Positions 2,434 through 61,473 of a stretch of DNA of 64,000 bases are shown piece by piece. The translations under genes were made by a program, and so were the position numbers. Source of the DNA: a virus (taxonomy: Duplodnaviria; Caudoviricetes). The stretch lies in the IMG/VR virus record IMGVR_UViG_2791355221_000004, positions 34,923-98,922 of that record; one strand, 5' to 3'. Every line of letters begins with the position of its first letter. Position 1 is the first letter of the stretch. The notes beneath the pieces were generated by a model. The model worked only from the letters and a program-made list of their open reading frames with translations, made no database searches and was not told the origin of the DNA.

Positions 2434-3333
2434 ATGATAAGAAGAATGACAAATGAGATTCAGGTAAAAGGTACAGTTAGTTTTATGGGGAAAGAGATCC
2501 CAAAAGTATTTGGAGGGTTCGGAGAAGACAAGCCAGTGTTGTTGGCAAAAACAATTGCGAAGATCCATGAAAGAGATTTGTTTAAAGTTAATGAGTTGAT
2601 TAACAACAACATTGAGCAGTTTAATATTGAAGGTGCTACGGATTTGATTGATTTAATCTCAATCCTTTCGAAGGATTCACTTTTAGAGTTTGGGTTCACA
2701 AAGCAATCTATTGCAAACTCAAAAAACATCTACCTCTTATCTGAGCGTGGGTATAAAATTCTAATCAAGGCTATGGAAGATGATATGTCTTGGGAAGTAT
2801 ATCATAAGCTATTGAATGAATATTTTAACTTCAAAGAGCAACAGCAGTTCGACCTTTCGAAACTTTCACCAGAATTGATTATGTTCAAAACCTTATGGGA
2901 TGGATTAGCTAAAACTCAGTTGATAGCACTTGAAAATCAAACAGAGATTAAAGAAGCTAAACAAGAAATTAAACAAGTACAGAATGTTGTTGATGATATC
3001 CGCGAGACGATTGTCCAACGTGATGACGATTGGAGAGATTCAATCAACCAACTAATAAAGAAGGCTGCTAAGAATTTGGGTGGACGTAATGATGACTTTG
3101 TGACTGTTAGAAGGGAATCATATGAACTACTTCAAGAACGTGCTAGTTGTCGCTTAAAACAACGGGTTAAGAACATTCAAGATAGGATGCGTGAACAAGG
3201 CATTAGAGAGACAGACGTTAAGAAAGCAAACAATCTTGATGCAATCGAAGCAGATAAGAAGTTAAAAGAAATCTATTTTAGTATTGTTAAAGAGCTTTCA
3301 ATTAAATATGGAAATGATAAAAGGGTAGTGTAA
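2434..3333 (+). CDS. ORF6N-domain antirepressor-like protein
   Basis: GGFGEDKPVLLAKTIAKIH...INNNI...NIYLLSERGY N-domain; coiled coil; C-terminal KLKEIY..IVKEL helix. Confidence 0.8.
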   Translation: MIRRMTNEIQVKGTVSFMGKEIPKVFGGFGEDKPVLLAKTIAKIHERDLFKVNELINNNIEQFNIEGATDLIDLISILSKDSLLEFGFTKQSIANSKNIYLLSERGYKILIKAMEDDMSWEVYHKLLNEYFNFKEQQQFDLSKLSPELIMFKTLWDGLAKTQLIALENQTEIKEAKQEIKQVQNVVDDIRETIVQRDDDWRDSINQLIKKAAKNLGGRNDDFVTVRRESYELLQERASCRLKQRVKNIQDRMREQGIRETDVKKANNLDAIEADKKLKEIYFSIVKELSIKYGNDKRVV

Positions 3334-3648
3334 AGTAAAAATAATACATATAAACAAAGTGTGGTTACTAGATGAATAGGCAAAGTAACCACACTCATTT
3401 TTAATGAAATCGAGGTGACTATATATTTATTGTGTTATACAAAAAGTTGTCAATAAAAAAGTCAAGTATCAAGGCCAGTCGAAGCAAAGTGATGATGGGG
3501 AAATGATGAAACTCATTAACAGGTTAAAAGAGGAATGGAAAATAGAAGCTTCCAAAACTAGCATAAGTTAAAGAAGAAGGCACAAAATGTTGATCCATAT
3601 AGTGGAAAGTGTTTTAATATATATACAACAACTAAAGGAGCGACAAAG

Positions 3649-4242
3649 ATGACAATAAACCAAGAAGATGAAAGTAAAAGTGAAAAAGAATCGTTGCGTA
3701 AATACATTCTTAACATGGAAGTTGAAAAAGTCGAGTTCAAAAAAGCAGTAGTGGATTACATTGGTGTTTGGTACGAAAAGAACGCAAGAAAGTTGATTAC
3801 CGATAATGAAGAAACGCTCAAATTACTAGATACTGCTATATTAAAAGCATTTAAAGAAGATGTACGCAAGCTAATTGAAAATGCTAGTGAGTATGTAGAG
3901 AAATATTTTGATGATGAAAAATTGTGGTGGCACACTAACGGACATAGAGCTTTAGTTTTTAATAATTCGGAATTACCAAGTGAAATCAATATAAGCTTAA
4001 AAGCGTTAGCTGGTGAATTGGGAAGTGTGTTGGATAGACATGAATTAATACTAATTAGTGGATCTAGTGCAATTTCAAGGATGGAAAATATTGAACAGTT
4101 GATTCAATCCTATGAAAAGTATGATACGTTGACTCTTCGAGCAGAACTATTGAAAGATATTATTAATAGTAAAGAAAAGAAAATTAAGGACAATTCTAAG
4201 GTTGAGGATAACTCTATAGGCGATTTGTGGGATTCATTGTAA
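3649..4242 (+). CDS. hypothetical protein (cargo)
   Basis: 197 aa ORF, AAGGAG RBS, followed by a terminator. Confidence 0.75.
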   Translation: MTINQEDESKSEKESLRKYILNMEVEKVEFKKAVVDYIGVWYEKNARKLITDNEETLKLLDTAILKAFKEDVRKLIENASEYVEKYFDDEKLWWHTNGHRALVFNNSELPSEINISLKALAGELGSVLDRHELILISGSSAISRMENIEQLIQSYEKYDTLTLRAELLKDIINSKEKKIKDNSKVEDNSIGDLWDSL

Positions 4243-4266
4243 GCCATTATACATTTTAAATAATTT

Positions 4267-4294
4267 CCCTGACATTTGTAGTGTCAGGGTTTTT
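4267..4294 (+). terminator. intrinsic terminator
   Basis: CCCTGACA...TGTCAGGG followed by a T run. Confidence 0.7.
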
Positions 4295-4666
4295 AGTGTT
4301 TACTTTTGCTATGTGATTTCTATTGTTATCAATTGGCTAATCTTTAGAGTTTGACATATAATGGGAAATTGTATTCACTAAAGGGTATCCATCAAAATCA
4401 TTTTCCTACATGATGAACAACTGATGAAAGAACAATTTTAATGCGAGTTATATAGATAAATTATTTTAAAGTAAAAAATTAATTTAGGGTTTAAGGAGCC
4501 TATTAAGGGTTCTATTTTATTCAACTTTATCAAGAACTCTAGTTTTTGAGATACCAAATATTAGAATATTAATATTACTAGAAACTAACAAAAATATATT
4601 GTCAATATTCCTATGTTTTCCATTACATAGTATAATATGACTATAAAATTTAAGGGGAACTCTACT

Positions 4667-59344: not shown

Positions 59345-60058
59345 ATGAAATTAACTTTAGTAAAGCAAGTAAACTTTGGAACAATGTTAATGGATTTCTA
59401 TATGGATATGAATGGCGAACCATGGGCTACACGTGAACAGATCGGAACAGCATTGGGGTATGGAGATCCAATTAGGGCTATTTCTAAAGTCCACGAACGT
59501 CACGAAGAACGATTTAAAGATAAATCAGTAGTAGTCAAACTGACCACCACTGATGAAAAAGATTACAGTACTACGTTATACAATGCTAGAGGTATTACAG
59601 AGATTTGTCGTTGGGCTAGAACTGAAAAATCAGATGAATTTTTTGATTGGGTGGCAGACATTATTGATGAACTACGAAGAAATGGTGTTGTTGTATCCGA
59701 TACCGCGACACACGAACAAGTTAAATTCAACATCTCAACATTTATGGCTAATTTAGATGAGTACAATATCACAAAACTATATAATCTCGTCGAAGAGTTC
59801 TTAAGTTTTCATCGTGAGAAGAAGACACGCTTACCTTTTGAACGTTCAAATAAGAAGCGTCATGGAAATAAGAAATTGAAAAACCACATCGAGTCGATGG
59901 AGGAAATTAGAAAAGAGCTGGTTACATATTTAGATGTTAAGATTCAACTTTTCAATAATTCCAATCAAGCTGGCTTAGCACAAGAATATGTGCGTATTAA
60001 AGGCTTGGTCGAATGGAAAGTTGAAAATATGCGGTATCGATCTGCTGCATGTAAATGA
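59345..60058 (+). CDS. BRO-N-like antirepressor family protein
   Basis: WATREQIGTALGY...AISKVHERH...LYNARGI.EIC...FFDWV. Confidence 0.8.
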   Translation: MKLTLVKQVNFGTMLMDFYMDMNGEPWATREQIGTALGYGDPIRAISKVHERHEERFKDKSVVVKLTTTDEKDYSTTLYNARGITEICRWARTEKSDEFFDWVADIIDELRRNGVVVSDTATHEQVKFNISTFMANLDEYNITKLYNLVEEFLSFHREKKTRLPFERSNKKRHGNKKLKNHIESMEEIRKELVTYLDVKIQLFNNSNQAGLAQEYVRIKGLVEWKVENMRYRSAACK

Positions 60059-60111
60059 GGTAAAAAGCAATACATAAAAATGGAGAGTGTGATCAATCCA
60101 CTCTCCTAATC

Positions 60112-60279
60112 CTATACATATTTACGAATCGCTTTAGCTACAAGTCCAGCGACAAATATTCCACCAAATAAATATAGAATATTAAAATTTGATAGGTTCA
60201 ACATCCCTAAATAATCCAAATACATAAGAGCAACAAGACCAAGGAAAACTACTGAGCCAAATACATATTTGGGCGTCAT
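60112..60279 (-). CDS. small membrane protein (55 aa)
   Basis: Own translation MTPKYVFGSVVFLGLVALMYLDYLGML...; ATGA overlap with the upstream gene. Confidence 0.55.
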   Translation of the reverse strand: MTPKYVFGSVVFLGLVALMYLDYLGMLNLSNFNILYLFGGIFVAGLVAKAIRKYV

Positions 60280-60500
60280 ATTAATTTTCTGTCAATTTGT
60301 TTAATTAACACTGACAACTTATCATCAATGGATTGCAAGAGTGACAACACTTGATTTTTATAGTTACGGTCAAAGTCTTTCTCTTCTTGTTCAGCATTTT
60401 CTTGTTGAGCTGTAATTTCTAGAATAAGTTTTTGTTTTTCAGCAGGTGAAAGATTTGGATTGCTTATCAAACGTTTTAATTCTTCTGACATGGTGCCCAC
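60276..60500 (-). CDS. hypothetical protein
   Basis: 74 aa, AAGGAG RBS. Confidence 0.6.
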   Translation of the reverse strand: MGTMSEELKRLISNPNLSPAEKQKLILEITAQQENAEQEEKDFDRNYKNQVLSLLQSIDDKLSVLIKQIDRKLI

Positions 60501-60639
60501 TCCTTATTTGTGTAGTAATAGGTATATTATACCATATGAGACTTAGATTCACTATATTTAGGAGATAGAAAGTAAAATCAAACTAATACATAGTTTGTAT
60601 AGTAAATATAAATAATATAAAAATTATAGGAGTGACTGA

Positions 60640-61473
60640 ATGGTAATTATTAAACTTGAGAACGGCAATACAGTAAAATTGTTTGAAAAGAATGATGTAA
60701 TTGAAAAGTTAGGAAGAACAATCGATGAGTGGAAATTGGTTGACCGATACCAAACGAAATTCCCTATCTTGAGTATTGTTGAGAGTAAAGACAAGCTTCC
60801 TATTGATAGCGAAGAATTGTGTGAGGCAATGGGAGTGGATGACCCATTCACATCATGGCTCTTAGCAGATAGGGCAAAAGTAAAGGGGAAATTAATTAAG
60901 TATAGATTTGTTCGAGGAGAAGACTTTATCGAGATTTCTCGAAAAAGTACTGGTGGTCGCCCAAAAACAGAAATCAAGCTCTCTATCAATTGTGCGAAGA
61001 AAATTGCTATGAGACAAAATAACGATGCAGGTAATCTAGTTGCAGATTATTTCATCCTAATGGAGCTATTAGCAAAAGATATGGATAAATGGATCAGCGT
61101 AAGAGAGCCAGAAAAAGATGGATGGACAAGAGTAAAAAAAGCATTATACGATAACTACATTTTAACTCACGATGGTAAGAAGCCAGATCATACTTGGTTC
61201 GAGGTCAAAGAAGCTGATTTAATTGACTTGAATCTGTTCGGATATAAGGCAGGAGATTTGCGAGAACTTCTTAAAATGGATGATAATGTTACTCGGAATC
61301 ATTTAACAATTGAATGCAATCAAGCTTTATATGAAGTTCAAATCCTAGTAGAGAGTTTGATTTTAAGTGGAGTCGTATACAAAGATAGATTTGAATACGT
61401 AAAGAATTATTGCCAGAGTAAATTTAAGCATATTCCATCAGTTATCGAGGAATTAAAGAAAATAAAAGGATAA
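60640..61473 (+). CDS. AntA/AntB family antirepressor
   Basis: IDSEEL...FTSW...YRFVRGEDF...GGRPKTEIKLSINCAKKIAM...DYFILME. Confidence 0.85.
   Translation: MVIIKLENGNTVKLFEKNDVIEKLGRTIDEWKLVDRYQTKFPILSIVESKDKLPIDSEELCEAMGVDDPFTSWLLADRAKVKGKLIKYRFVRGEDFIEISRKSTGGRPKTEIKLSINCAKKIAMRQNNDAGNLVADYFILMELLAKDMDKWISVREPEKDGWTRVKKALYDNYILTHDGKKPDHTWFEVKEADLIDLNLFGYKAGDLRELLKMDDNVTRNHLTIECNQALYEVQILVESLILSGVVYKDRFEYVKNYCQSKFKHIPSVIEELKKIKG

Follow-up and report, generated by a model that had tools for sequence, protein, structure and literature searches.

Short palindromes are embedded in the coding sequence of three families of DNA-binding regulators, AntA, Bro-N and ORF6N, where they occupy one aligned place in each family and are spelled differently from one homologue to the next. 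They were recognized through a 64,000-nucleotide (nt) stretch of prophage-like DNA (approximately 34% G+C; IMG/VR virus record IMGVR_UViG_2791355221_000004, positions 34,923 to 98,922), here called the window, in which an initial annotation had located five hairpins. Hairpins were present at all five locations, although only the ORF6N repeat is perfect and the other four are imperfect. Three of the hairpins, those of the AntA, BRO-like and ORF6N genes, do belong to coding palindromes that run through their families, and that of a BRO pseudogene probably does; the ParB hairpin of the window was not supported as a conserved palindrome. Up to four family-type palindromes therefore lie within one 64-kb prophage stretch, three of them in intact genes. 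The observation is counted as real because the symmetry is conserved at the aligned position in homologues, and we regard the existence of such conserved dyads as very probable. The five inverted repeats were as follows.

2661 to 2677, ORF6N coding palindrome: perfect 7-bp arms and a 3-nt loop, with the dyad on codon position 2; encodes SILSKDS.
12000 to 12027, ParB-linker hairpin: a 4-bp ungapped core only, longer pairing requiring a bulge and a mismatch.
58632 to 58662, BRO pseudogene palindrome, probable and decayed: a 6-bp perfect core in 12-bp arms, with 2 mismatches and a 7-nt spacer.
59524 to 59554, BRO-like (Bro-N) coding palindrome: 14-bp arms with 2 A.C mismatches and a 3-nt centre; encodes KSVVVKLTTTD.
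60923 to 60948, AntA coding palindrome: 12-bp arms with 1 mismatch and a 2-nt centre; encodes DFIEISRKS.

The genes that contain these repeats were identified by Pfam matches, which placed all five repeats inside or beside DNA-binding domains, as had been claimed.

2434 to 3333, plus strand: ORF6N-domain antirepressor-like gene, 299 aa (Pfam PF10543, 27.9 bits).
11635 to 12810, plus strand: ParB_N plus helix-turn-helix (HTH) gene, 391 aa (Pfam PF02195, 35.0 bits).
58430 to 59094, plus strand: frameshifted Bro-N/ANT(KilAC) antirepressor remnant, with overlapping open reading frames (ORFs) at 58430-58882 and 58762-59094.
59345 to 60058, plus strand: Bro-N domain gene (BRO-like), 237 aa (Pfam PF02498, 32.0 bits).
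60640 to 61473, plus strand: AntA/AntB-type antirepressor gene, 277 aa (Pfam PF08346, 42.6 bits).

The AntA gene (42.6 bits versus a gathering cut-off of 27), the Bro-N gene at 59345-60058 (32.0 versus 25.6) and the ParB_N domain (35.0 versus 26.3) were above the Pfam cut-offs, the ORF6N gene was marginally so (27.9 versus 27.8), and the HTH_ParB match of the ParB gene (16.7 bits) was below its own cut-off. ORF 58430-58882 matched Bro-N at 21.2 bits, under the cut-off of 25.6, and can be called Bro-N-like only. The ANT match in 58762-59094 (35 bits) covered only positions 2 to 45 of the 108 of the profile and was in a different frame from the Bro-N part. The BRO pseudogene was classed as a frameshifted remnant because of this combination of a Bro-N match below the cut-off and a truncated ANT/KilAC match in another frame.

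The peptide coded by the AntA palindrome is flanked by the conserved motifs EDF and GGRP, in a segment that is the variable, indel-prone part of the family. The DNA of 15 homologues with 33 to 46% identity was analysed (locus L017 was left out, as it gave no tblastn hit), and the aligned segment contained a palindrome with a score of at least 6 in 13 of the 15 and of at least 5 in all of them. Ten distinct spellings were present among these palindromes, and the spacers consisted of T-runs in some homologues and of A-runs in others. The score of the window palindrome was matched by none of 200 synonymous permutations.

A family search of 401 genomes of the class yielded 27 Bro-N homologues after 3 of 30 loci (L042, L044 and L057) had been dropped for a wrong ORF. 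Palindromes with a score of at least 6 were detected in 15 of the 27 (13 distinct), and in 14 of the 27 a hairpin of this score was centred within 2 columns of alignment column 59. The centre of the BRO-like palindrome of the window falls on column 59, exactly at the family peak. The maximum of the rotation null averaged 0.18, and the observed peak was reached in 0 of 500 rotations. Six unrelated peptides were each coded by perfect arms of 9 to 11 bp, and synonymous permutation gave p values of ≤0.05 for 8 of the 27 homologues. For the BRO-like palindrome itself the corresponding p value was 0.24, the Val and Thr codons within it being inherently complementary; its two mismatches each fall at a third codon position where the change is synonymous. 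The repeat of the BRO pseudogene falls within the canonical Bro-N columns 50 to 72 and has a 7-nt spacer typical of the family, but the repeat is weak. Its score was unmatched elsewhere in the DNA of the domain (p_elsewhere, 0.00), and the synonymous test gave a p value of 0.40. On the minus strand the BRO-like palindrome forms a fully paired stem with two G-T (G-U) pairs (-18.6 kcal/mol) followed by a T-rich tail and appeared terminator-like in a simple scan. A separate G+C-rich 8-bp stem at 60082-60106, just past the BRO-like stop codon and between convergent genes, is probably an ordinary transcription terminator.

Two sets of ORF6N homologues were compared. The first consisted of 12 distant canonical ORF6N genes, of which 6 contributed to a palindrome peak that was reached by the rotation null in 1 of 500 cases (p = 0.002); this peak lies approximately 15 columns from the window hairpin. 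The second set represented the subfamily of the window gene itself and was built from 193 protein homologues (PF10543 was carried by the matches listed), their alignment and 80 genomic loci, 5 of which were dropped (poor coverage, internal stop and one duplicate); 74 distinct homologues were compared. Within columns 70 to 92 of this alignment, a palindrome with a score of at least 6 was found in 56 of the 74 homologues and one of at least 5 in 68. Distinct spellings numbered 54, the longest arms reached 17 perfectly matched base pairs, and every one of the palindromes fell in the hypervariable part that separates the D.IDLK motif from LGFTKQ. Column 77, where the subfamily has its main peak, is also the centre of the window hairpin, and the rotation null reached this peak in 0 of 300 cases. 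An initial judgement from the 12 distant genes that the window hairpin lay off the canonical site was overturned by viral relatives and then by the 74 homologues of its own subfamily. The two sets were clearly homologous by hhalign (99.8% probability). Many ORF6N sites share a TCG-W-T...A-W-CGA-like core, which also codes a recurring peptide. A secondary peak of the second set, at columns ~48 to 56 (window ~2590-2615), comprised hairpins with a score of at least 6 in 22 to 30% of the 74 homologues over a conserved NELINNN peptide and is probably an A/T-rich palindrome forced by that peptide. In a viral contig (L006), approximately 14 nt upstream of the start of the high-scoring segment pair, a Rha-like N-terminal domain was observed to carry a 6-bp-arm palindrome over its conserved KQHRDVL motif, which may be a coding palindrome of a further regulator family.

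Taken together, the AntA, Bro-N and ORF6N comparisons bore out the initial description of a shared architecture without a shared sequence, as distinct spellings occurred at one aligned place, and in the homologues of all three families the segment was hypervariable and yet palindromic.

For ParB the outcome was divided between the window gene and its wider group. The window hairpin is located in the hypervariable linker that joins ParB_N to the HTH but has an ungapped score of only 4, which is indistinguishable from chance, and neither the window gene nor its nearest relatives (L071 to L073, 47 to 52% identical; L074 and L076) had a palindrome above a score of 5. The claim of a ParB hairpin was therefore not sustained; this repeat is most likely a product of chance and at best a decayed remnant. 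Among 19 ParB-like homologues (10 of 29 loci were left out because of an uncovered linker, an internal stop or the lack of a hit), linker palindromes with scores of 6 to 14 were detected in 10 (L077, L079 to L082, L085, L087, L090, L091 and L095). These palindromes span 13 to 29 bp, have centres of 0 to 1 nt and contain up to 14 perfect pairs, and all 10 are distinct, each with its own spelling. Synonymous permutation gave p values of ≤0.01 in 8 of the 19 homologues, and the rotation null reached the observed peak in 0 of 500 cases. The ParB-like linker palindromes could be parS-like sites written into the gene.

Hairpins in the structural genes of the window served as a control. The strongest hairpins in non-regulatory genes, at 42863 (tail protein), 45958 and 45641, had scores of 8 to 9, as good as or better than those of the five claimed hairpins. 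These three hairpins were kept in 0 of 7 comparisons with homologues of 51 to 76% identity, in which the best score was 3 to 4. A further hairpin at 46968 was not covered by homologues and was unusable as a control.

Within the window the five hairpins do not stand out. A uniform scan for ungapped hairpins with loops of 2 to 7 nt detected 178, 51, 12, 4 and 2 hairpins at scores of at least 6, 7, 8, 9 and 10, respectively, compared to means of 172.5, 49.7, 14.8, 4.1 and 1.2 in 100 dinucleotide shuffles. Local DNA folding ranked the five hairpins 29th to 226th among 430 local structures, and the counts of such structures exceeded those of shuffles only mildly and at middling energies. Hairpins scoring at least 6 occurred at 3.19 per kb in the five genes, compared to 2.69 across the structural block and 2.81 in the rest of the window. 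At successive thresholds the five genes contained 13, 4, 2 and 1 hairpins versus means of 10.1, 2.6, 0.8 and 0.3 in 200 synonymous-codon shuffles (p = 0.17 to 0.26), AntA being the only gene that stood out individually (p = 0.025). Within the window, the finding of the initial annotation failed by the very comparison that annotation had named, as the hairpin density equalled that of capsid and tail genes and of shuffled sequence.

The nature of the conserved element was examined through its variability and geometry. Peptide identity at the site was 0.32, compared to 0.53 and 0.57 in the flanks, and in 116 close pairs it was 0.42 versus 0.78. Among 989 arm pairs there were 62 mismatches, comprising 11 G.T, 14 A.C and 37 others, with no preference for wobble pairs on either strand. 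In the ORF6N and ParB-like palindromes the complementarity runs into the centre. The position of the dyad centre was particular to each family: all 13 AntA palindromes were centred between bases, and all 15 Bro-N, all 62 ORF6N and 9 of 10 ParB-like palindromes were centred on a base; in the second ORF6N set this base was at codon position 2 in 46 of 56. None of the five palindromes recurred in the window, and no further copy was found within 1.5 kb on either side at 22 of 22 homologue loci, where the best matches had identities of 0.55 to 0.73, compared to means of 0.61 to 0.65 for foreign-palindrome controls. No recombination joint was detected at the ORF6N site, where 5 of 299 pairs were discordant; the control splits had 83 of 338 and 60 of 807. 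A scan of positions 54000 to 64000 against Rfam gave no match at E ≤ 1. In the synonymous permutations, the symmetry of several homologues and of the AntA copy of the window went beyond what their amino acids impose. Overall, these comparisons demonstrated that the spelling of the arms changes freely and fast, and they pointed to double-stranded DNA, and not to protein or RNA, as the level at which the symmetry is maintained.

Structural models were obtained with AlphaFold2 for the AntA protein (mean predicted local distance difference test score [pLDDT], 84.4) and the BRO-like domain (pLDDT, 83.5). In the AntA model the palindrome codes strand E96-103 of the beta-hairpin E96-103/E106-114, and in the BRO-like model it codes strand E61-67 and the turn of the hairpin E61-67/E73-80. 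The two models share a helix-helix-beta-hairpin-helix layout in which the palindrome codes the first hairpin strand, after two to three helices. The top structural match of the BRO-like model was the N-domain of baculovirus Orf22 (4ye7_B; Z, 8.6; root mean square deviation [rmsd], 3.0; 96 residues aligned), and a match to Mbp1/APSES was also obtained (Z, 6.5; rmsd, 3.2; 89 aligned). Profile comparisons among AntA, Bro-N and ORF6N never reached 3% probability and were not significant, PDB sequence searches with the BRO-like protein and the AntA profile returned nothing meaningful, and neither model had a Foldseek match at E ≤ 0.001; both models weakly touched DdrC.

Template switching may be the main force that keeps the dyads symmetric, a reading that we favour tentatively and at somewhat less than an even chance. 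In each family the dyad has a constant position within that part of the DNA-binding domain which varies most, and in the AntA and Bro-like models this part is predicted to be the first strand of a beta-hairpin "wing." Template switching during replication would copy one arm from the other, so that the arms would stay complementary and a change in one arm would be either erased or mirrored, altering two amino acids at once. A fast-evolving specificity loop, as this segment would be, could absorb such paired changes and might even profit from them. This explanation fits best because the arms are fast-changing and Watson-Crick paired and there is no wobble bias, no partner site and no recombination signature. 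The mismatches resemble fresh point mutations, as those of repeats kept by template switching would, and the occurrence of AntA spacers both as T-runs and as A-runs is an informal sign of spacer inversion. The hairpin-templated diversification hotspot raised in the initial annotation is compatible with everything seen.

Several points weigh against this interpretation. Nothing in the window exceeds chance, and three of the four accepted hairpins are individually nonsignificant (p = 0.24 for BRO-like, 0.40 for the BRO pseudogene and 0.5 gene-wide for ORF6N). Palindromes with a score of at least 6 are lacking in 44% of the Bro-N homologues and 47% of the ParB-like homologues. The structural-gene control points the right way but is small (seven comparisons for three hairpins). 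Between the two ORF6N subfamilies the palindromes are offset by 10 to 12 residues, which points to a shifted site or separate origins and gives a hint of selection. Template switching is itself deduced from the pattern, and the counts treat related sequences as independent. It would explain the upkeep of a dyad but not why several families each own one or have their own spacer geometry, and geometry of this family-specific kind is more reminiscent of a dimeric protein's footprint.

A cis function, either as a docking site or as a cruciform, would accordingly be a serious rival. As a self-encoded cis site, the dyad would be a double-stranded docking site for a dimeric protein, its own product or a partner, placed inside the gene so that recombination cannot part the two. 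The fixed geometry particular to each family, the symmetry through the centre in ORF6N and ParB-like palindromes (centre of 0 to 1 nt) and the fact that all hosts are DNA-binding domains are consistent with such a site, as are the likeness of the 13- to 29-bp ParB-like linker palindromes to centromere-type sites and the recurring ORF6N core, though the latter also codes a recurring peptide. The lack of a second palindrome copy in the window or near any of the 22 homologue loci speaks against it, as does the divergence of the site, which outpaces that of the domain (0.42 versus 0.78 in close pairs) and which a conserved reading head could not follow; on balance we consider this docking site doubtful. 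The same two observations left the initially proposed self-binding operator without support, fast divergence arguing against a sequence-specific self-operator unless the variable peptide itself reads the site. A further reading, unlikely but more novel, is that in AntA, Bro-N, ORF6N and the ParB-like group the codons of the variable wing or linker would double as a fast-evolving DNA docking site private to each gene. Protein and site would then be inseparable and self-addressed, and peptide and palindrome would covary, since a single DNA stretch would be both. The least supported reading is a role in RNA, with a hairpin in the mRNA or an antisense RNA acting as a pause, processing site or terminator. 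Stems of 6 to 17 bp with short loops would fold in RNA, and the minus-strand BRO-like repeat is fully paired via its two G-U pairs (-18.6 kcal/mol) with a T-rich tail. However, the mismatches show no wobble bias (11 of 62 G.T versus 14 A.C on the sense strand), complementarity in ORF6N and ParB-like palindromes enters the central 1 to 3 nt that an RNA loop would leave free, and T-run and A-run spacers of AntA are equivalent in DNA but not in RNA, which makes this role improbable. Chance would make the five hairpins ordinary random inverted repeats out of roughly 180 to 230 comparable ones in the window, in line with the agreement between window and shuffle counts, the ranks of 29th to 226th of 430 and the ParB hairpin with its ungapped score of 4 and its palindrome-free nearest relatives. 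As an account of all five it is very improbable, since the aligned sites of homologues are strongly enriched for differently spelled palindromes and equally strong hairpins of the structural module are not kept; chance was refuted by the homologue tests for AntA, BRO-like and ORF6N and stands for ParB.

Cis sites within the gene of their own binder include parS inside spo0J/parB and the lambda ori iterons inside gene O. The dyads resemble these in being a symmetric DNA element in the coding sequence of a DNA-binding protein, within a tolerant linker or variable stretch. Unlike those sites, they have no further copies nearby and vary faster than the conserved DNA-binding parts. Template switching is reported to perfect and preserve short inverted repeats in bacteria and to produce one-step compensatory changes (Lavi et al. 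2018, PMC5941160; Monttinen & Loytynoja 2022, PMC8794818). The repeats described in those studies share with the present ones Watson-Crick arms that change together, no wobble preference, multibase paired changes and conservation beyond expectation in bacteria; they differ in that the same repeat among orthologues, or the stems of RNA genes, were scored. Here, place and geometry are kept across homologues of 30 to 50% identity with the spelling fully turned over, and the repeats are within the protein-coding DNA of particular DNA-binding families. Numerous long coding palindromes of up to 284 bp are described in functional protein genes of hairworm mitochondria (2019, PMC6649704). As described there, they likewise are inverted repeats in functional coding genes and represent a compromise between DNA symmetry and protein sequence, but both of their arms code conserved protein regions, whereas each of the phage and prophage genes analysed here has a single short dyad (13 to 39 bp), placed where the protein is least conserved. 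Full-text literature searches, which did not extend to subscription journals or supplementary files, turned up no account of coding palindromes fixed in position in genes of the AntA, Bro-N, ORF6N or ParB-like type, which agrees with the initial supposition that the system might be undescribed.

If a cis function is true, thousands of antirepressor-like and defence-island genes would hold an unrecognized regulatory or docking element in their coding sequence, and the "variable loop" of such domains would be in part a translated nucleic acid signal. If template switching alone is responsible, the dyads would illustrate cleanly, in nature, how a mutational mechanism can mould protein sequence by two residues at a time over long evolutionary spans. 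In either case, alignments and selection analyses of these families should treat the segment as constrained at the DNA level, and both readings are directly testable by synonymous recoding.

Searches for relatives of the window genes gave limited returns. Megablast of window positions 1 to 25000 against phages produced no match, no further copies of Bro-N or ORF6N were found in the genome itself, and AntA was not found among 135 genomes of the same family. Single-protein scans detected no relatives of ParB and none of AntA in genome contigs, and scans of viral contigs with the BRO-like and ORF6N proteins gave matches to C-terminal parts only. Two proviruses with related tail genes (G535 and G536) had no match to the ORF6N gene, the ParB gene or Bro-N.

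The remainder of the window contains a terminase-to-tail-fibre block at approximately 22.5 to 51.5 kb and a serine recombinase at 61785-63434. The tape-measure protein (35547-41819; 2090 aa) has an endolysin-like segment at residues 1688 to 1815 (phrog_669), and gene 4637-5731 in the prophage early region has a strong match to DUF4062 (105 bits). The strongest short-loop inverted repeat of the window is at 7836-7875, with arms of 17 to 19 bp, 2 to 3 mismatches and a score of 11; it lies in a stretch of approximately 7.2 to 9.1 kb with short ORFs only on both strands and may be a regulatory or terminator element. A G+C-rich 8-bp stem at 4267-4289, just past the stop codon of gene 3649-4242, is probably an ordinary transcription terminator.

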